Assembly (NCBI GenBank): GCA_036794935.1
Contig: DAIRFU010000003.1
Coordinates: 1-36,589 of the forward strand
Source: Kofleriaceae bacterium
GTDB lineage: Bacteria > Myxococcota_A > Polyangia > Haliangiales > Haliangiaceae
Reading direction: 5' to 3'
DNA length: 36,589 nt
Shown here: positions 23,918 through 36,159 of the stretch, in pieces
Position numbering within the stretch: position 1 is the stretch's first letter
How the letters are laid out: every line of letters starts with the position of its first letter
Notes under the pieces: model-generated
Seen by the model: the letters and a program-made list of their open reading frames with translations, nothing else
Databases searched by the model: none
What the model was told of the DNA's origin: nothing
Made by a program: the position numbers and the translations under genes

Positions 23918-26767
<2,850 letters not shown>

Positions 26768-26817: not shown

Positions 26818-29061
26818 ATGCGGATCGTGCTCCTTGCGTTGCTCCTGGCGGCGTGTGAAGGACCTGCAGGCCCGCAGGGTGAGGATGGAACCGACGGCGC
26901 CGATGGCGCGGACGGCAGCCACGGCGATCCGGGGCCCACGGGCGAGCCCGGCACCGTACCGCCCGTGCCGTGGCTGGTCGCCGACCAGGTCCAGATCGCG
27001 GTCACGGATCTGACCGTCGATGGCAGCGGCGCGCACGTCGCGTTCACGCTGAAGGACAAGGACGGCAAGCCGCTCGATCGCACCGGCAACCTGACCGACG
27101 GCAAGGTCACCGTCAGCTTCATTCTCGCCCAGCTCGGCACCGCGAGCGACGGCAGCGCCGCGCAGTACACGGCCTACACCAGGCGCAGCGTCAACGCGAC
27201 GCCGCCGTATCCGACCGCCACCGCCACCCAGGCGACGACCGAGGGCACCGAGTCGCGCTTCGAGGTCGTCGACGTGACCCAGGGTAGCTACCGCTACGAC
27301 TTCGAGGCACCGACCACCGGCTACGACGCGACCAGGACCCAGAGCGTGCTGGCCGTCGCGTCGCGCACCCTCGACGGCGTGCAGGCCTGGGACCGCGACC
27401 TGTTCCACGTCGGCACGGTTCGCCACGAAGAGGTGACCGACACGAGCTGCGGCAGCTGCCACGGCTCGTTCGCCGCGCACGGTGGCCGGTACACGAAGCC
27501 CGAGCACTGCGTGCTGTGCCACACCGCGCAGAGCTCGGATCCGGAGAGCGGCAACACCGTCGACTTCAAGGTGATGATCCACAAGCTCCACCGCGGCGAG
27601 AACCTGCCGAGCTTCGTCGCGGACTCGAGCAAGCCCTACGCGATCATCGGCTACGGCAACTCCGTGCACGACTTCTCGACGGTCGGCTTCCCCGGTCCGT
27701 CGACGGACGTCGCGGTCAACATCCGGCGCTGCGAGACGTGCCACGACGGCGCCCAGCAGACGAACTGGTACGCGCGGCCGAGCACGGCCGCCTGCACGTC
27801 GTGCCACGACACGACGGTGTTCACCGCGAACCCGGCGCCGCCACTCGTCGCGCACCAGGGTGGTGTCGATCCGGCGCTCGTCAACGACGGCACGTGCATC
27901 GTGTGTCACGGGCAGACCGCGGGCCCGGCGCCCGTGCCGGCCGCGCACTACACGGGTCTGCTCGATCCGAGCACGGGCACGATGCGCGTCGACATCCAGT
28001 CGGTGACGAACACCGCACCCGGCCAGCTGCCGACCGTTCGCTTCAAGGTGACCGTCGACGGCGCGCCGCGCGATATCCAGGCGTCGCCGCTATCGGCACT
28101 GACCGCGACGATCGCCGGTCCGACGACCGACTTCCGCGAGTTCTGGCAGGCGCGCGTGCAGGGCTCGGGTGCGGTCGGCACGCTGACAGCGGTCGATGCC
28201 GCGGCCGGCATCTTCGACTACACGTTCCCCGCGGCGACGGTCGCGAAGCCGACGCCGTGCACGGAGTCGACGGCCGCCCGCGAGTGCAAGATTCCCGACG
28301 ACGCGACCGGTAGCTACCAGATCGCGTTCGAGGCGAGCTGGACCCCGGCCGGTCAGCAGCGCATCGTCGCGCCGCCGCCGATCGCCGCGTTCGCGGTGAC
28401 CGACACGACCGCCGTGCCTCGCCGCACGATCGTCGCCAACGCGAGCTGCAACGGCTGCCACGTCGACCTCCAGTTCCACGGCGGTGGCCGCAAGGACGTC
28501 CAGTACTGCGTGATGTGCCACAACCCCAGCAACGCGAACGACGAGCGCATCTCTCGGCTCGAGGGCTCGGCGGTGTTCGCCGAGAGCGTCGACCTCCGCG
28601 TGATGGCGCACAAGATCCACATGGGCGAGGAGCTGTCGCAGCCGTACATCCTCGGCGGCAACCCGGCGCCGAGCACGTCGAATCCGCTCGGCGCCCCGGA
28701 GGACTTCTCCGAGCTCCGCTACCCGCGCGCGCGTACGGCGTGCAACGCCTGCCACACCGGCACGACGTGGCAGCTGCCGATGGCGGCGTCGGCGAAGTAC
28801 CTGCCGAGCACGACCGTCGAGCTGACCTGCAGCGAGGATCCGAGCGCGGACAGCGATAGCTACTGCACCGGCGCGTTCTGGGCGATCACGAAGACGACCA
28901 AGATCGCGCCGGAGAGCGCGGTGTGCACGAGCTGCCACGATGCGCCGTACACCGCGGCGCACGCGCTGCTCAACACCACCACGGGTGGCGTCGAGGCGTG
29001 CACGACGTGCCACGGCCCCGGCAAGGAGCTCGACGTCTCGCGCTACCACGGCACCCCGTGA
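26818..29061 (+). CDS. Decaheme c-type cytochrome lipoprotein with MtrC/OmcA-like four-domain layout (beta domain, 5 hemes, beta domain with CX8C, 5 hemes)
   Basis: The start is taken at the ATG at 26818 (MRIVLLALLLAAC, lipobox), inside track ORF 26686..29061. The CXXCH motifs are CGSCH, CVLCH, CETCH, CTSCH and CIVCH, then a heme-free segment of about 150 aa containing CTESTAAREC, then CNGCH, CVMCH, CNACH, CTSCH and CTTCH. Confidence 0.85.
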   Translation: MRIVLLALLLAACEGPAGPQGEDGTDGADGADGSHGDPGPTGEPGTVPPVPWLVADQVQIAVTDLTVDGSGAHVAFTLKDKDGKPLDRTGNLTDGKVTVSFILAQLGTASDGSAAQYTAYTRRSVNATPPYPTATATQATTEGTESRFEVVDVTQGSYRYDFEAPTTGYDATRTQSVLAVASRTLDGVQAWDRDLFHVGTVRHEEVTDTSCGSCHGSFAAHGGRYTKPEHCVLCHTAQSSDPESGNTVDFKVMIHKLHRGENLPSFVADSSKPYAIIGYGNSVHDFSTVGFPGPSTDVAVNIRRCETCHDGAQQTNWYARPSTAACTSCHDTTVFTANPAPPLVAHQGGVDPALVNDGTCIVCHGQTAGPAPVPAAHYTGLLDPSTGTMRVDIQSVTNTAPGQLPTVRFKVTVDGAPRDIQASPLSALTATIAGPTTDFREFWQARVQGSGAVGTLTAVDAAAGIFDYTFPAATVAKPTPCTESTAARECKIPDDATGSYQIAFEASWTPAGQQRIVAPPPIAAFAVTDTTAVPRRTIVANASCNGCHVDLQFHGGGRKDVQYCVMCHNPSNANDERISRLEGSAVFAESVDLRVMAHKIHMGEELSQPYILGGNPAPSTSNPLGAPEDFSELRYPRARTACNACHTGTTWQLPMAASAKYLPSTTVELTCSEDPSADSDSYCTGAFWAITKTTKIAPESAVCTSCHDAPYTAAHALLNTTTGGVEACTTCHGPGKELDVSRYHGTP
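26860..26952 (+). repeat. Collagen-like Gly-X-Y tract (10 triplets) starting one residue (Glu) after the lipobox Cys of the decaheme cytochrome
   Basis: The tract reads GPA GPQ GED GTD GAD GAD GSH GDP GPT GEP G, read directly from codons 15-45 of the gene. Confidence 0.85.
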
Positions 29062-29064
29062 ACC

Positions 29065-30157
29065 GTGAGGGCAATGCTCGTCATGCTCGCGCTCACTGGC
29101 TGCTCCGAGGAGCGTCTGCTGTCCGGACCGTGCGATGGCTGCGTCGTGACGCTTCACGACCAGGGCATCCTCGATCCGGGGAGCGACGCGTTTCACGGGA
29201 CGCTGCTCGCTCGCACGAACTGGGGCTTCGCGCGCTGCGCGGAGTGCCATGGCGAGGACTTCAGCGGCGGCACGAGCGGCGTGTCGTGCGTGAGCTGTCA
29301 CCAGCAGGGGCCGACCGCGTGCGTGACGTGTCACCGCGACGAGTCGCCGTCGCACGCGGTGCACCGCGCGGCGAGCCTGACGTGCGCGGAGTGCCATCGC
29401 GTGCCCGAGCGCTGGGACGCACCGGGCCACATCGTCGACGACGCGCTCCCCGCCGAGGTCACGTTCGGTGCACTCGCCGCGGCGACGCTCGATCCGGACG
29501 ATCGCGAGGGACCACCGGTGTTCGACGGCGCTCGCTGCAGCAACGTCTATTGTCATGGCGCGGTCCTCCACGCCGGTGGTGGCAGCGACACGCAGCCGAC
29601 GTGGGACGCGACCGCGACCGGCACGTGCGGCAGCTGTCACGCGGCACCACCGCCGAGCCACGCGCGTAGCGACTGCGCGACCTGTCATCCGCAGAGCGCG
29701 CCGCACATCGACGGTGCATTGCAGATCGGCACGACGAACGACTGCTCGGGGTGCCACGGCAGCGCGGCATCGCCGGCCCCGCCGTTCGATCTCGAAGGCA
29801 ACCAGTTCACGACCGCGATCGGCGTCGGCGCGCATCAGGCCCACCTCCAGGCACCGTCGGGATTGCGTGGGCCCATTCCGTGCGAGACGTGCCACGCGGT
29901 GCCGGCAACCGTGACCGCGGTCGGCCACCTCGACGCGTCGCCCGCCGAGGTCAACCCGGAGCTCGGCTGGGATCGCGAGAGCCAGACCTGCACGACGTGG
30001 TGCCACGGCGTGGCGCGGCCGAGCTGGACGTCGCACGGCGAGGTCGTGTGTGGCTCGTGCCACGGCGCACCGCCAGCGGATGCGAACCACGACGCCCAGA
30101 TGACGATCGCGACGTGCGTGAGCTGCCACGTCGGGACCCACATGGACGGAGTGCTCG

Positions 30158-30168
<11 letters not shown>
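29065..30168 (+). CDS. 12-heme c-type cytochrome lipoprotein with an internally duplicated CxxxxCH...CXXCH-type module
   Basis: 367 aa with a lipobox (LALTGC). It has ten CXXCH motifs (CAECH x2, CVSCH x2, CVTCH, CGSCH x2, CATCH, CSGCH, CETCH), plus CSNVYCH (CX4CH) and CTTWCH (CX3CH). The start is the GTG at 29065 or the ATG at 29074. Confidence 0.85.
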
Positions 30169-30774
<606 letters not shown>

Positions 30775-30778
<4 letters not shown>

Positions 30779-31065
30779 GGCTGCGGCTCACGGCGAGCGT
30801 GGGACTTCACCTCTCGGCGGTGCTCACGTTGATCGCGCTCGCGCTGATGGTGTGGTCGGTGGTCGAGCCGACGCCGCTGCCGGTGATGGTCGCGATGACC
30901 GTCGGCCAGGCGCTCGGTACGACCGCGTTCGGCATCTTCGTCTGGGTCGTGTTCGCGGACCTCACGCGCCAGCGCGCCGAGCGCAAGTCGCTCGAGCGGA
31001 TCTCGCTCGTCGACATCGAGGTGCCGAAGCGGGGGCCCGCCGGCGAGCCGAAAGAGCACGCGTGA
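30775..31065 (+). CDS. Small 2-TM membrane protein
   Basis: This is the C-terminal part of track ORF 30223..31065. The ATG at 30775 overlaps the previous stop (ATGA). The 96-aa product begins MRLRLTASVGLHLSAVLTLIALALMVWSVV...TTAFGIFVWVVFADL and has a charged tail. Confidence 0.6.
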
Positions 31066-32231
31066 TGAAGCGCGCGCTCGCGGCGATGCTCGCGATCGCG
31101 GCGTCTCGAGGTGCCTCTCCGGCGGGCGCCGATCCGCTGCGCCTGCGCGCCGACGCGCTCGCGACCACGCAGTCGCCCGCGGGCCTGCTCGTGCTCGAGG
31201 CGGACGGCAAGGCGAGCGCGACCGCGAACGCGGAGGCGATCGTATGGACCGCGAACGACTCGGCCGACGTGCTCGTGATCGCGCTGCGCGCACGCACGAA
31301 GGACGGTCGCGTCGGCGGCCGCGTCGGCCGGTTCGTCGCCTCGCTCGGTGCGCTGCGTCCGGTGCACGTCGACGGGCTCGCCGGGCGCATCCGGCTCGGC
31401 AAGCGCTTCGACATCGAGGCGTACGGCGGCATGCCTGTGGTCGCGTTCTCCGAGGGTACGAGCGCGCGTGCGTGGGACTGGGTGCTCGGCGGTCGCGTCG
31501 CGCGCCGGCTCGGGGACTACGGCTCGGTCGGCGTCGCGATGCTCGAGCAGCGCGATCACGGGCAGCTGGTGACCCGCGAGCTCGGTGTCGATGGCGGCCT
31601 CGCGCTCGGCAAGCACCACGACGCCGAGGCGCGCGTCGCGTACGATCTCGCGAACCCGGGCCTCGCCGACGTCCATGGCAGCGTGATCCGCCGCAAGGGC
31701 ACGTTGCGCGCCGAGGCGTACGGCGGCTACCGCGCGGCGTCGCACCTGCTCCCGGCGACGTCGCTGTTCACCGTGCTCGGCGACACGCCGTCGGCGCGCG
31801 GCGGCGTGCTCGTCAGCAGCAAGGTCGCGCCCCGGCTCGAGCTGTCGAGCGATCTGGGCCTGCGCGGCGCCGCCGACGAGCTCGGCGCGATGATCGTCGT
31901 GCGTGCGCGGCTCGCGCTCGACGATACGTTCGCGAGCGCGCTCACCGGCGAGCTGCGCCGCGACGGCGTCGGTGACGACGCGTGGACCGGCGCGCGCGGT
32001 GCCGCTCGCATCGCGCTGCCGCACGAGCTCGTCGCGAGCACCGAGCTCGAGCTCGTCGTGCCCGATACCGATCGCGGCCGTGGTCGCGTGTGGCCGTGGG
32101 CACTCGCCGCGCTCGGCTGGCAACGCGGTCCGTGGCAAGCGGCGGTCGCGGGCGAGGCGTCGGCGTCGGCGGAGTACACGCGGCGGCTCGACGTGCTGTT
32201 CCAGCTGGGCCGTCAGTGGAGCACGCCGTGA
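31065..32231 (+). CDS. Putative outer-membrane beta-barrel protein (candidate porin of the cytochrome conduit)
   Basis: This is the C-terminal part of track ORF 30852..32231. The ATG at 31065 overlaps the previous TGA (TGATG). The 388-aa product has a signal peptide (MKRALAAMLAIAASRGASPAGA) and no Cys or heme motifs. It has many short amphipathic alternating segments (FDIEAYGG, WDWVLGGRVARRL, GSVGVAMLEQR, AEARVAYDL, LRAEAYGGYR) separated by Gly/Asp turns. Confidence 0.55.
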   Translation: MKRALAAMLAIAASRGASPAGADPLRLRADALATTQSPAGLLVLEADGKASATANAEAIVWTANDSADVLVIALRARTKDGRVGGRVGRFVASLGALRPVHVDGLAGRIRLGKRFDIEAYGGMPVVAFSEGTSARAWDWVLGGRVARRLGDYGSVGVAMLEQRDHGQLVTRELGVDGGLALGKHHDAEARVAYDLANPGLADVHGSVIRRKGTLRAEAYGGYRAASHLLPATSLFTVLGDTPSARGGVLVSSKVAPRLELSSDLGLRGAADELGAMIVVRARLALDDTFASALTGELRRDGVGDDAWTGARGAARIALPHELVASTELELVVPDTDRGRGRVWPWALAALGWQRGPWQAAVAGEASASAEYTRRLDVLFQLGRQWSTP

Positions 32232-33259
32232 CGAAGCGCCGCGTCGCAGTCGCGCTCGCGCTCGTCGGGCTCGCCGCGTGTGCGGGCGTGCTCGGTCTTC
32301 GCCCGCGGGAGCCGAGCCCGTTTCCGCATCGCAAGCACGTGCTGAACGGTGTTGCATGCACGACGTGCCACGTCGGCATCGACACCGCGAGCGGTGACGC
32401 GGAGCTGCACCTGCCCGACGAGGCGTCGTGCCTGTCGTGTCATGACAAGCCGCACGATCCGAAGCCGTGCTTTCAGTGCCACTCGCGGCCGACCGCGCGC
32501 GCCGAGCTGATCGAGGCCCGCGAACATCTGCGCTTCGATCACGCGCGCCACGTACCGCGCACGCACGGCAACTGCATGCGGTGCCACGTCGGCGTGGGCG
32601 AGGGCGACGACCGGCTGCGCCCGGCGATGGCGACCTGCTTCAAGTGCCACGACGGCGAGCGGGACATGCGCCGGTGCGACAGCTGCCACCGAAGCCTCGA
32701 GGCCGGCACCGACATGCCGGCGAGTCACCTCGCGCACGATGGTGACTGGCTGCGCGATCACGGTGCGCGCGCCGCGTCGTCGGCGGATCTCTGCCAGACC
32801 TGCCACACCGAGCGCTCGTGCGCGACCTGTCACGGCGTCACGGTCCCGGTGCTGCCGGCGACCCTGCGGTTCGCCGATCCGTTCGCCGCGAGCGTGCACC
32901 GCGCCGGCTTCGCGTCGCGCCACAGCCTCGAGGCGAAGGCCGATCCGGGCGCGTGTCAGACCTGCCATCAGCCCGATCGCTGCGCGGCGTGCCACGTCGA
33001 GAGGGGCGTCGCCGGTCTCGATCGCGCGAGTCCGCACCCGCCGGGCTGGGTCGGCGTGACCGAGAACCTGCACGGGCGCGAGGCGCGTCGCGATCCGGCG
33101 TCGTGCGCGAGCTGTCACGGCGGTGCCGGCGAGCAGCTCTGCGTGACATGTCACAAGGTCGGCGGCATCGGCGGCAGCCCGCACCCACCGGGCTGGTCGA
33201 GCAAGCGATCGCTCGGCGCGATGCCGTGTCGGCTGTGTCACACGCTGGGGTCGCGATGA
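32228..33259 (+). CDS. 13-heme c-type cytochrome lipoprotein (c7/c3-like and paired-CXXCH segments)
   Basis: This is the C-terminal part of track ORF 31982..33259. A GTG at 32228 overlaps the previous stop (GTGA), and a GTG at 32216 is an alternative start. The lipobox is LVGLAAC. There are thirteen CXXCH motifs, including FPHRKH...CTTCH, FDHARH...CMRCH and the closely paired CQTCHTERSCATCH and CQTCHQPDRCAACH. Confidence 0.85.
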   Translation: MTKRRVAVALALVGLAACAGVLGLRPREPSPFPHRKHVLNGVACTTCHVGIDTASGDAELHLPDEASCLSCHDKPHDPKPCFQCHSRPTARAELIEAREHLRFDHARHVPRTHGNCMRCHVGVGEGDDRLRPAMATCFKCHDGERDMRRCDSCHRSLEAGTDMPASHLAHDGDWLRDHGARAASSADLCQTCHTERSCATCHGVTVPVLPATLRFADPFAASVHRAGFASRHSLEAKADPGACQTCHQPDRCAACHVERGVAGLDRASPHPPGWVGVTENLHGREARRDPASCASCHGGAGEQLCVTCHKVGGIGGSPHPPGWSSKRSLGAMPCRLCHTLGSR

Positions 33260-34896
33260 CGAGGCGCCTCGGGCTCGTCGCGTTCGCGCTGATGCTGCTC
33301 GGGGCCATCGGCGGCTTCGTCGCGTGCGGCATGTCGGAGCGGCCGCGCGCGTCGGAGCACGTGCCGGTCGCATACCGCCAGGCGCGCCTCGCGATCGGTC
33401 ACGTCAAGCACGTCGGCAAGGTCGCGTGCGCGGACTGCCACGGGCAGGCGTTCGAGAAGCCGGCCGCCGAGCTGTGCACGAGCTGCCACGCGAAGACGTC
33501 GTCGCTGCACCACGACGATCCGACGACGACCGACACGCCACCCGCGTGCATCGACTGCCACGGCTACACCGACGCGACGGCCACGCCGTGGAACTGCATG
33601 CGCTGCCACGACGAGAAACGCGGCCGCCACGCGGCGGTCGGCGCGCACGCCGAGGAGGACTGCAGCACGTGTCACCAGCCGCACGGCGAGCCGGCGACGC
33701 GGGCGCAAGGCTGCGAGAGCTGTCACCGCGGCCGCGAGACCACGCACGCGGGCCTGCACGGCTGCCTCGACTGCCACGCGATGCACGAGAGCAAGCTGCC
33801 GAACCTCGCCGGCCGCGAGGGCGGGGCGGCGGCCACCGGCTGCGAGCGCTGCCACGCGCAGCAGAAGGGCACGCTGCACGTCGACGCCCGCGCGCTATCG
33901 ACGGGCCACGACGCGTGCACGAGCTGCCACCAGCCGCATGACTTCGAGCCGCGCGCGTGCCTCGATTGCCACCGCGATCGCCCCGAGGGCAAGCAGCTGA
34001 TCGCGCCGGCCAGGCACCAGTGCGCGAGCTGCCACGACCAGCACGACATCGCCGAGCCGCGCGCGTGCGCGACGTGTCACCGCGACGAGGCGCAAGCGAT
34101 CGAGCACCCGGCCACGCCGCAGGGCGCGTGCATCGGCTGTCACCGCCCGCACCAGCCGCAGGCCGCGTGCGAGTCGTGCCACGCGCAGATCCCGCGCCAC
34201 TCCGCAGAGGCCCGGTGCCTCGACTGCCACGTGCCGCACGCCGGCAAGCCGAAGCCGAACGCCGCGTTCTGTGGCGCCTGCCATGCCGACAACGCCGCGC
34301 GCTCGGCGGGTCACGGCGAGTGCACCACGTGCCACGAGAACGCGGCGCACACGCCGAGCAAGCAGACACCCGCGTGCGCGACCTGCCACACCGACAAGGC
34401 GCGCGACATCGGCAAGCATGCACGCTGCGCGAGCTGCCACGCCGACGTGCACGCACCGGCCGCGCAGCCGCCCGCCTGCGCGACATGCCACGAGCGACAG
34501 GCGAGCTCGGTGCCCGCGGGCCACGCCGACTGCGCGAGCTGCCACACCCCGCACGCGCCGGGCACGACCCCGGCGTGCGCGACGTGCCACGCGAGCGAGG
34601 CGAAGACCCGCCACGGTGCGCTCGGCTGCGCGACCTGCCACCGCCCGCATGGCCCGAACGGCATCGCGAAGCCGCCGTCGTGCGTGACGTGTCACGTCGC
34701 GCGGACCGGACCGGCACCTGGTCCGCCGCCCCGGAAGCTCCACGCGGCGAAGGGGCACGCCGACTGCGCCACGTGCCACGTCTCGCACGAAGCCCGGCCG
34801 CGCGACGACCGCGCGAGCTGCCTCGCGTGCCACCAGGACCAGGTCCGCCACGAGCCGGCCGCCGCTCGCTGCGCGACCTGCCACCCGTTCCGTTAA
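33256..34896 (+). CDS. 27-heme c-type cytochrome lipoprotein built from tandem diheme units
   Basis: This is the C-terminal part of track ORF 32818..34896. The ATG at 33256 overlaps the previous stop (ATGA). The 546-aa product has a signal/lipobox (LLGAIGGFVAC). I counted 27 CXXCH motifs by hand, about one per 20 residues. Confidence 0.88.
   Translation: MTRRLGLVAFALMLLGAIGGFVACGMSERPRASEHVPVAYRQARLAIGHVKHVGKVACADCHGQAFEKPAAELCTSCHAKTSSLHHDDPTTTDTPPACIDCHGYTDATATPWNCMRCHDEKRGRHAAVGAHAEEDCSTCHQPHGEPATRAQGCESCHRGRETTHAGLHGCLDCHAMHESKLPNLAGREGGAAATGCERCHAQQKGTLHVDARALSTGHDACTSCHQPHDFEPRACLDCHRDRPEGKQLIAPARHQCASCHDQHDIAEPRACATCHRDEAQAIEHPATPQGACIGCHRPHQPQAACESCHAQIPRHSAEARCLDCHVPHAGKPKPNAAFCGACHADNAARSAGHGECTTCHENAAHTPSKQTPACATCHTDKARDIGKHARCASCHADVHAPAAQPPACATCHERQASSVPAGHADCASCHTPHAPGTTPACATCHASEAKTRHGALGCATCHRPHGPNGIAKPPSCVTCHVARTGPAPGPPPRKLHAAKGHADCATCHVSHEARPRDDRASCLACHQDQVRHEPAAARCATCHPFR
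33427..34884 (+). repeat. Protein-level tandem array of CXXCH-xxH-(6-10 aa)-CXXCH-(7-12 aa incl. His) units
   Basis: Example units are CSTCHQPHGEPATRAQGCESCHRGRETTHAGLHG, CTSCHQPHDFEPRACLDCHRDRPEGKQLIAPARHQ, CASCHDQHDIAEPRACATCHRDEAQAIEHP, CASCHTPHAPGTTPACATCHASEAKTRHGALG and CATCHVSHEARPRDDRASCLACHQDQVRHEP. At the DNA level TGCGCGAC(C/G/A)TGCCAC recurs. Confidence 0.8.
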
Positions 34897-35004
34897 GCAA
34901 CGCGTGCCGGCAACTGGAGCTGCCGGTCCGCGATTTGCCACGTGGGTTTTCGCACCCCAAGCGGCGCTACGCGCTGGCGCCCGCGTTGCAGTTGCCGCGA
35001 GCCG

Positions 35005-36159
35005 ATGCGGACGTGGTGCCTGGTGATAGCGATGATGGCCGGCTGTGCCTTCGCCGGCGGTGATGCGAACGACGAGTCGTTCGTCGTCGGTGGTCAGCCC
35101 GAGAGCGGCTACCCGCCGGTCGGCTACCTCCACAACACGCTCTACCCCGACTCCAGGACGTGGTGCGGCGTCACGCTGATCGCGCCGACCGTCGTGATCA
35201 CCGCGTCGCACTGCGTGGATGGGGTCGCGGCGGCAAACCTCGAGGTCGGCTTCGGCCTGGTCGACAGCTCGCCGCTCGTCGCGGTCGCCGCGGTCCACAT
35301 GCACCCGAGCTACGTCTACCGGCAGGAGGGCGACTTCCTGCCGTGGGACGACGTCGCGGTGCTCGAGCTCGCCCAGGCCGTCACGGCCGTCCCGCCGGCG
35401 ACGCTCGCCCGCGCGCAGACCGGTGGCTGCACCGCGCGCTACGTCGGCTACGGCCGCAACGTGCCCGGCGACGGCCACGTGACCGAGGGCTACGACGGCG
35501 AGCGGCGCAGCGCCACGATCTGCATCGACGCCGAGAACCCGCACGAGCTCTACGTCCACGGCGACGACGGCGGCCTGTGCTGGGGCGACAGCGGCGGCCC
35601 GCTGCTCGCCGATGGCACCACGCACGTGTTCGGCGTGCTGTCGCGCCACGCGCCGCGCATCGACTCGCACTACTCGTGCGAGACGGGCAACCGGATGATC
35701 TTCACGGCCGCCGCGACCTATCGCGACTTCATCACGCAGTGGGCGCCCGACGCGTTCGAGGCCGAGCCCGCGGCGACCGCGAGCGTGGGCTGGTGCAACG
35801 TGCAGTGGCCCGAGACGCTGGCCGCCCAGCCGTACGCGACGACCGAGCCGATCTACGGCCGCGTGTGGGCCGAGGGCGTGACGCCCGGCCGTGGCCAGGG
35901 CGCGGGCGTGACCGCGGAGGTCGGCTTCGGCCCGGCCGACTCGGCGCCCGACACCGCCGCCGGCTGGATCTGGTACGCCGCGCACTACAACGTCGACGTC
36001 GACGGTCTCGCCGCCGGCGATCTCGCGAACGACGAGTATATGGGGACCCTGTTCCCCTATGCCGCCGGCACGTACTCGCTCGCGTACCGGTTCTCGGCCG
36101 ACGGCGGCCAGACGTGGAAGACCTGCAGCAGCGGCTCGAAGCTGACCGTCGCGCCGTGA
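35005..36159 (+). CDS. Trypsin-like (S1) serine protease lipoprotein with an uncharacterised C-terminal domain of about 130 aa
   Basis: The start is taken at the ATG at 35005 (MRTWCLVIAMMAGC, lipobox), inside track ORF 34942..36159. S1 features are present: VVGG, the catalytic triad contexts TASHC, DDVAVLEL and GDSGGPL. The C-terminal domain reads WCNVQWPETL...IYGRVWAEGVT...YSLAYRFSADGGQTWKTC. Confidence 0.88.
   Translation: MRTWCLVIAMMAGCAFAGGDANDESFVVGGQPESGYPPVGYLHNTLYPDSRTWCGVTLIAPTVVITASHCVDGVAAANLEVGFGLVDSSPLVAVAAVHMHPSYVYRQEGDFLPWDDVAVLELAQAVTAVPPATLARAQTGGCTARYVGYGRNVPGDGHVTEGYDGERRSATICIDAENPHELYVHGDDGGLCWGDSGGPLLADGTTHVFGVLSRHAPRIDSHYSCETGNRMIFTAAATYRDFITQWAPDAFEAEPAATASVGWCNVQWPETLAAQPYATTEPIYGRVWAEGVTPGRGQGAGVTAEVGFGPADSAPDTAAGWIWYAAHYNVDVDGLAAGDLANDEYMGTLFPYAAGTYSLAYRFSADGGQTWKTCSSGSKLTVAP

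Follow-up and report, generated by a model that had tools for sequence, protein, structure and literature searches.

An OmcA/MtrC-family decaheme cytochrome in a Kofleriaceae bacterium and its conserved multiheme operon, a candidate porin–cytochrome conduit

The 36,589-nucleotide stretch of DNA analysed here (the window) comes from a Kofleriaceae bacterium (assembly GCA_036794935.1, contig DAIRFU010000003.1). It encodes a decaheme c-type cytochrome that almost certainly belongs to the four-domain family of OmcA, MtrC, MtrF and UndA. The gene opens an operon of seven co-oriented genes (26818–34896), set apart by 4 bp gaps or joined through overlapping start and stop codons, which together encode 66 heme motifs. 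The operon is probably a variant porin–cytochrome electron conduit, and by analogy with the characterized systems we consider it on balance probable that the decaheme protein is the outermost, cell-surface module of the extracellular electron-transfer pathway that the operon would encode. The decaheme protein itself is an ordinary member of its family, already named by automatic annotation in near-identical proteins. What is modestly new is a variant of the protein that is specific to the Myxococcota and, above all, a conserved operon of non-MtrAB type with an uncharacterised barrel.

Family membership and fold of the decaheme protein

The protein matches the NCBIfam model of the OmcA/MtrC decaheme family (TIGR03507) with a score of 373.3 bits against a cutoff of 209.3, residues 69–744 covering model positions 5–672 of 672. 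The Pfam model of MtrC/MtrF domains II and IV (PF22113) matches twice, in both heme blocks (175 bits). A search of the PDB with the single sequence returned OmcA (E = 3e-22), MtrF (5.5e-18), UndA (2e-10) and MtrC (2e-5), and a profile built from 27 family sequences returned MtrF (1.3e-67), OmcA (3.4e-54), UndA (1.4e-46) and MtrC (6e-22). The AlphaFold2 (AF2) model, built on 81 homologs, consists of two β domains and two helical heme domains, with a mean predicted local distance difference test score (pLDDT) of 83.2 and a predicted template-modelling score (pTM) of 0.75. When this model was compared with the PDB using Foldseek, the top matches were full-length OmcA, UndA and MtrC only (E = 7e-28 to 1e-20, TMq 0.52–0.60), a fragment of MtrC comprising domains I–II (PDB entry 9eov) was matched with an E value of 2.5e-10 and a TMq of 0.27, and the matches ranking after OmcA, UndA and MtrC fell to a TM-score of 0.12. 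The family model, the profile comparison and the predicted structure therefore bear out the four-domain MtrC/OmcA architecture that an earlier note on this DNA had proposed.

The order of the domains, β–pentaheme–β–pentaheme, is that of the Shewanella proteins OmcA, MtrC, MtrF and UndA (TIGR03507; PDB entries 4LMH, 4LM8, 3PMQ and 3UCP), with which the window protein also shares ten CXXCH motifs, ten distal histidines and a lipobox that is followed by a Gly-rich, collagen-like linker. The whole-chain TM-score is ~0.6, yet the identity in the Foldseek alignments is 15–20%.

Re-reading of the open reading frame confirmed the coordinates of the gene and the division of its ten CXXCH motifs into two blocks of five, which begin at residues 211, 231, 305, 326 and 360 (nucleotides 27448–27909) and at residues 544, 564, 642, 703 and 728 (nucleotides 28447–29013). 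A heme-free, β-rich segment before each block, which had also been proposed, is seen in the AF2 model as strands spanning residues 59–198 and 389–526, with pLDDT values that are mostly above 90 in both segments. All ten CXXCH motifs are invariant in the window protein and in 80 homologs from genome loci of several phyla, as are ten further histidines at positions 221, 255, 258, 346, 377, 554, 598, 601, 715 and 744. Because ten bis-His hemes require this many histidines as distal ligands, the CXXCH pattern is not a product of chance.

A database protein (P0001) is identical over all 747 residues and has the same start codon, that at 26818. An upstream ATG at 26686 was considered as the start and rejected: a product begun there would lack a signal peptide, and 26818 is the start of the database protein. 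Apart from the heme motifs, the translated reading frame contains five cysteines: C13 and the pairs C481/C490 and C671/C683. C13 lies in the lipobox, and both this residue and the Gly-X-Y linker are kept in 35 of the 36 Myxococcota homologs; C13 is missing from the homologs of other phyla in the alignment of the window protein with the 80 genome loci. The linker is predicted to be disordered (pLDDT below 50 for residues 9–44) and aligns with the GGSDGxDGxxGxPG linkers of OmcA, MtrF and UndA.

NCBI and the Joint Genome Institute give many relatives the name 'OmcA/MtrC family decaheme c-type cytochrome'. The same name is carried by HEU4610548.1, a protein from a Kofleriaceae metagenome-assembled genome (MAG) that falls in the cluster of an 89%-identical relative (P0002).

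The operon as a candidate electron conduit

In the pathway that we propose, electrons from menaquinol would enter through the NapC/NirT-type tetraheme protein in the inner membrane and would be passed to the 13-heme and 27-heme cytochromes in the periplasm. From these they would cross the outer membrane by way of the predicted ~22-strand barrel, probably with the 12-heme lipoprotein, and the barrel-associated cytochrome would hand them to the decaheme protein on its flexible, collagen-like tether. The final acceptors would be insoluble or extracellular, for example oxides of Fe(III) and Mn(IV), or humics. Such a path is analogous to CymA–MtrCAB–OmcA of Shewanella and to the Pcc systems of Geobacter, from which its trans-outer-membrane parts differ.

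For the secreted 389-residue protein, no Pfam or NCBIfam match was found. It has 717 homologs, called 'hypothetical protein' wherever the source names them. Members of this family are always encoded within the cytochrome operon. The AF2 model (pLDDT 77.6) shows 21–22 long antiparallel strands, and its Foldseek matches at E <= 0.001 are transmembrane barrels only (FimD/PapC pores, OmpU, Tom40/VDAC and LptD). On the strength of this model, the protein can be described as the predicted outer-membrane barrel of a family not described before, and as a candidate conduit porin.

The NapC/NirT-like tetraheme protein is a candidate quinol dehydrogenase and CymA analogue. Its fourth heme motif is CASEGCH, of the CX4CH rather than the CXXCH type. 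Unusual motifs also occur in the 12-heme lipoprotein, which has ten CXXCH motifs, one CX4CH (CSNVYCH) and one CX3CH (CTTWCH), and for which a comparison with PDB sequences gave no match. The 13-heme protein weakly matches multiheme or c7-like chains of PDB entries 6lod, 6f0k and 8k9e, which we take to be ActA subunits of alternative complex III. The 27-heme cytochrome, with about one heme per 20 residues, gives weak PDB matches to nine-heme and high-molecular-weight cytochromes and to chain 6r2q_A (E = 1.9e-4); we take this 333-residue chain of the MtrCAB entry 6r2q to be MtrA, although the match list labels it otherwise. No family match was found for the small 96-residue protein, which tblastn places at the equivalent position in 23 related loci.

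The operon is conserved beyond the window. By tblastn, about 20 Myxococcota loci have these genes beside the decaheme gene in the same order and orientation. Another four keep the order but have no NapC-like gene, and three more carry the rest of the cluster upstream of the decaheme gene and on the other strand. The arrangement was not found by tblastn beside homologs from other phyla. In an acidobacterial locus (L041, 9815–19227), the decaheme gene is followed by one for a full-length DmsE/MtrA-like decaheme protein (190.4 bits against a cutoff of 192.2) and then by genes for a 653-residue protein of no family but of MtrB size, a multiheme protein and a NapC-like cytochrome, a layout like that of mtrCAB. 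Set against the Myxococcota operon, this row suggests that the partner set has been swapped between phyla.

With MtrCAB (S. baltica, PDB entry 6R2Q; clusters of Baker et al., 2022), the operon has in common an MtrC-family decaheme protein, multiheme cytochromes, a predicted barrel and a NapC/NirT quinol dehydrogenase, and the acidobacterial homologs retain the order of mtrC, an mtrA-like gene and a gene for a large protein. The Myxococcota operon differs in that it has no DmsE/MtrA-family decaheme gene and in its additional 12-heme, 13-heme and 27-heme proteins and small protein with two transmembrane helices. Its barrel, with 389 residues, ~22 strands and no described family, also differs from MtrB, which has ~700 residues and 26 strands. 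The Pcc clusters of Geobacter (OmaB–OmbB–OmcB and ExtABCD) follow a similar logic, combining a mid-sized barrel with a periplasmic multiheme and a lipoprotein multiheme cytochrome, and the 12-heme lipoprotein of the operon contains the CxxxxCH/CxxCH domain (TIGR01904) of Geobacter. Comparison of the operon with the Ext and GSU2203 family models gave sub-threshold matches only and none that was significant. The Geobacter Pcc systems are not known to use an OmcA/MtrC-family decaheme protein. We tentatively suggest that the operon may represent an undescribed class of porin–cytochrome conduit that is common among Kofleriaceae, Haliangiales and other Myxococcota. In such a conduit, an unrelated barrel of a new family and the 12-heme, 13-heme and 27-heme cytochromes would together take the place of MtrA and MtrB beside an MtrC-type surface decaheme protein, and the inserted loop that bears the CX8C pair of the decaheme protein could be a redox-sensitive element of independent origin.

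A number of observations weigh against the reading of the decaheme protein as the surface module of an outward conduit. The operon encodes no MtrA-family (DmsE/MtrA) decaheme protein, its best score against the corresponding model (TIGR03508), that of the 27-heme cytochrome, being 34.5 bits against a cutoff of 192; for this reason the crossing of the outer membrane by electrons is a conjecture. MtrB is not among the top 50 Foldseek matches of the barrel, and the Pfam and NCBIfam models gave no match to the MtrA or the MtrB/PioB family anywhere in the window. Family scans of the window proteins found no type II secretion genes. Surface exposure of the decaheme protein is proposed only by analogy with Shewanella. 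The cultured members of Kofleriaceae and Haliangium are known as aerobes, which makes dissimilatory metal reduction less obvious, and the sequence would fit a flow of electrons in either direction, as reduction or as uptake.

Some of these points are shared by a different reading, in which the operon would serve the uptake of electrons (oxidation of Fe(II), Mn(II) or reduced humics, with the electrons passed on to the quinone pool or to a terminal oxidase) or would form a periplasm-facing store or relay. Multiheme conduits are reversible in principle, and the 27-heme cytochrome could serve as a capacitor; the aerobic habit of the host's known relatives and the lack of secretion genes in the window are in keeping with such a role. 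We nevertheless regard it as rather unlikely. The predicted outer-membrane barrel speaks for a trans-outer-membrane function, and the Glu at position +2 of the lipobox and the long tether resemble those of the surface-displayed Shewanella proteins. Uptake in particular is made less plausible by the known oxidative conduits of the MtoAB/PioAB type, which a preprint describes as having no identified MtrC-type surface cytochrome.

Two further genes flank the operon. A 949-residue protein with Hsp70/actin-like ATPase and DUF3731 'DnaK-related' domains is encoded divergently from the decaheme gene (23918–26767, − strand); the gene is also found upstream of the decaheme gene in two related loci (L001 and L007) and not in more distant ones. 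The gene directly downstream of the operon (35002–36159, + strand) encodes a serine protease of the trypsin family that is extended at its C terminus by a further domain of ~140 residues; this gene is not syntenic in related loci. Scans for tRNA genes, Rfam families and promoters or terminators found nothing.

Table 1. Positions in the window of the decaheme gene, the parts of its product and the other genes of the operon
Feature	Position	Strand	Basis or remark
Decaheme c-type cytochrome lipoprotein gene, OmcA/MtrC family	26818..29061	+	ATG 26818 to stop 29061, 747 residues
Signal peptide with lipobox MRIVLLALLLAAC (LLAAC; C13 = predicted lipidated Cys, Glu at +2)	26818..26856	+	Sequence reading
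Collagen-like Gly-X-Y tether, residues 15–45, ~10 triplets	26860..26952	+	Pfam Collagen, E = 1.2e-4
Domain I, heme-free β, residues ~52–205, no cysteines	26971..27432	+	AF2 strands, pLDDT ~90–97; weak PF22111 MtrC-MtrF_N match
Domain II, pentaheme, first CXXCH block	27433..27951	+	Motifs invariant in 81 sequences
Domain III, heme-free β, residues ~379–535	27952..28422	+	AF2 strands
CX8C pair C481/C490, CTESTAAREC, in ~16-residue lineage-specific loop insertion before strand 499–508	28258..28287	+	Alignments
Domain IV, pentaheme, second CXXCH block	28423..29058	+	Motifs invariant in 81 sequences
CX11C pair C671/C683, CSEDPSADSDSYC, in Myxococcota-specific β-hairpin between hemes 8 and 9	28828..28866	+	Alignments, AF2
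12-heme lipoprotein cytochrome, Geobacter-type CxxxxCH/CxxCH domain	29065..30168	+	TIGR01904, 49 bits; syntenic in Myxococcota loci
NapC/NirT-family tetraheme protein, membrane-anchored	30158..30778	+	PF03264, 42 bits; N-terminal transmembrane segment, 4 heme motifs
Small 96-residue protein, two predicted transmembrane helices	30775..31065	+	ATG overlaps stop codon of NapC-like gene
389-residue secreted protein with signal peptide, predicted ~22-strand outer-membrane β-barrel	31062..32231	+	AF2, Foldseek
13-heme lipoprotein cytochrome, c7-type modules	32228..33259	+	PF14522; GTG start overlaps preceding stop codon
27-heme cytochrome, c3/c7-type modules, 546 residues, 27 CXXCH	33256..34896	+	PF14537, PF14522

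Cysteine pairs of domains III and IV

The outer-membrane cytochromes of Shewanella all carry a CX8–15C motif in domain III, and the corresponding disulfide begins at the end of a long β strand of this domain, near heme 7 (Edwards et al., 2015; PMC4486940). The earlier note placed the CX8C pair of the window protein, C481/C490, in the position of this disulfide, which the alignments contradict. In the profile-to-PDB alignment, the CX8C of MtrF (GGLAIQGRV-CAKDSVLVDC) directly follows the strand aligned to GSYQIAFEASW of the window protein, as does that of S. baltica MtrC (FIGLEM-CSTGTSLTAC); this is strand 499–508 of the AF2 model. An independent MAFFT alignment that includes MtrF puts the MtrF cysteine pair at window position ~509. 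The window pair therefore precedes the strand that the Shewanella pair follows. The window sequence at the Shewanella site is WTPAGQQRIV, with no cysteines, and none of the 77 non-Shewanella homologs in the MAFFT alignment (from Myxococcota, Acidobacteriota, Binatia, Chloroflexi and other lineages) has a cysteine pair there, so that the switch is not a trait of the whole family. On the sequences compared, flavin gating appears to belong to Shewanella-type clades.

The loop that holds C481/C490 has a narrow distribution. Among the window protein and 80 loci from species-representative genomes, the insertion is confined to the window and to a 77%-identical relative (L001). In a set of 81 closer relatives, all with identities of 54% or more, the loop has no cysteine in 63, the majority loop being 14 residues long, exactly two in the remaining 18 and never one. 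Its spacing varies, with CX8C in 11 of the 18, CX9C in three and CX7C, CX10C, CX11C and CX13C in one each. In the AF2 model the loop is coil with pLDDT values of 65–69. Because the number of cysteines is strictly zero or two, it can be argued that C481 and C490 form a disulfide, which would probably be a structural one that staples the inserted surface loop. Judged from these alignments, the insertion is young, drifting and lineage-specific and is not a homologue of the redox-switch disulfide of Shewanella; the match in spacing looks like coincidence.

The pair could still be thought of as a functional equivalent of the Shewanella switch, with a disulfide that is reduced under anoxia and a protein that then binds flavin mononucleotide or riboflavin as a flavocytochrome. 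The CX8C spacing and the domain are the same as in MtrC, MtrF and S. baltica MtrC, the cysteines are inherited together as those of a disulfide would be, and the model predicts a flexible, exposed loop. However, the loop is a different one, the Shewanella disulfide starting one strand later, and the pairing at the Shewanella site is missing from every non-Shewanella homolog aligned. The insertion is moreover missing in 63 of the 81 close relatives, 79 of the genome loci out of 80 are likewise without it, and the spacing of its cysteines drifts from CX7C to CX13C inside a single subclade. We therefore consider a flavin switch at C481/C490 very improbable. In one relative (P0089), a four-cysteine insertion, CGNGTCEVGENKNSCAADC, is found exactly in the loop that holds the Shewanella CX8C. 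It appears to resemble a myxobacterial cysteine-rich repeat.

The second cysteine pair, which had been noticed in the last pentaheme block, proved to be a real and conserved feature of the Myxococcota. Both C671 and C683 are present in all 81 close relatives, 78 of which have the CX11C spacing, and the pair is found in 34 of the 36 Myxococcota genome loci. The segment is a gap in all 45 non-Myxococcota homologs, and the MAFFT alignment shows no cysteine pair at this position in MtrF. In the AF2 model the pair spans a hairpin of strands 664–671 and 688–696, between hemes 8 and 9. It is best read as a disulfide with a structural role, part of a domain IV insertion that is specific to the Myxococcota, as would suit an oxidising, extracytoplasmic protein. 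The window protein thus departs from the Shewanella decaheme proteins in having no cysteine pair at the domain III disulfide site and none in domain I, in the added domain IV hairpin with its probable disulfide, in the CX8C loop inserted one strand upstream in its subclade and in the position of its gene, which does not adjoin genes of the MtrA or MtrB families.

Distribution, origin and biological meaning

The family is large. In a database clustered at 90% identity, 2146 proteins match at E < 1e-5; among clusters at 50% identity, 2095 match at E <= 1e-3 and 472 at E <= 1e-30; and 490 family loci were confirmed among GTDB species representatives. Matches with 41–77% identity come from Kofleriaceae, Haliangiales, Polyangiaceae, Archangiaceae, Bradymonadaceae and other Myxococcota MAGs, and those with 32–36% from Acidobacteriota (Thermoanaerobaculia, Terriglobia, Blastocatellia and Holophagae), Binatia, Chloroflexi and Nitrospinae. 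The best-segment identities from tblastn are 45–77% for most Kofleriaceae loci, 36–45% for other Myxococcota and 32–36% for Acidobacteriota.

Literature searches (Kofleriaceae with decaheme; Haliangiales with extracellular electron transfer and multiheme) found no paper that describes the decaheme clade or the operon. A 2022 preprint lists MtrC matches among Myxococcota MAGs. Baker et al. (2022), whose systematic mtrCAB survey counted only loci with mtrA and mtrB beside mtrC, report the cluster in Proteobacteria, Acidobacteriia and Gemmatimonadetes and make no mention of Myxococcota.

A neighbour-joining tree was calculated with a single Shewanella outgroup sequence (MtrF), a design that suits a test of monophyly and not deep rooting. 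The 32 Myxococcota sequences form one clade in 45 of 50 bootstraps, and corrected distances, measured from the window protein, average 0.81 within Myxococcota and come to 1.25 for other phyla and 1.82 for MtrF. The guanine-plus-cytosine content of the gene region is 70–72% (0.71 for the gene itself), level with the rest of the window. Taken together, the monophyly, the distances and the flat base composition rule out a recent transfer from Gammaproteobacteria. On this sequence comparison, the decaheme protein is a member of an old, Myxococcota-specific branch, with those of Kofleriaceae MAGs as its nearest relatives.

The earlier note had found the host unexpected and had hinted at horizontal acquisition, to be checked by a phylogeny. 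Neither idea survived: with 490 known loci, a Myxococcota clade, a conserved operon and relatives that are already annotated, the host is not a surprise, and the Myxococcota sequences group together far from MtrF. The idea that the gene was recently acquired from Gammaproteobacteria, from Shewanella-like donors, into a myxobacterial cytochrome cluster draws on the gammaproteobacterial origin of the characterized family members and on the horizontal spread of mtrCAB documented by Baker et al. (2022). Beyond the tree and the distances, it is opposed by a similarity that follows taxonomy, decreasing from Kofleriaceae through Acidobacteriota to the 15–20% seen with the Shewanella structures, by a base composition equal to that of the flanks, by the operon order conserved across Myxococcota and by the CX11C hairpin and the lipobox, which are clade-specific features of the Myxococcota copies. 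We regard such an acquisition as extremely improbable. An ancient transfer of the family gene between phyla is possible.

For the family, these results mean that the flavin-gating disulfide, often taken as a hallmark, should not be transferred by annotation. If the operon is indeed a new class of conduit, nominally aerobic, predatory soil myxobacteria would be capable of extracellular electron transfer. The results suggest an unrecognised potential for this process in the soil and sediment Myxococcota, which are abundant in metagenomes and on which we found no literature in that context. The MtrC-type cytochromes are modular, accompanied in Myxococcota by a conserved 66-heme operon with a barrel of no described family and in Acidobacteriota by MtrA-like and MtrB-sized partners. 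This contrast in partners amounts to a natural experiment on how a surface cytochrome docks to different trans-outer-membrane modules.

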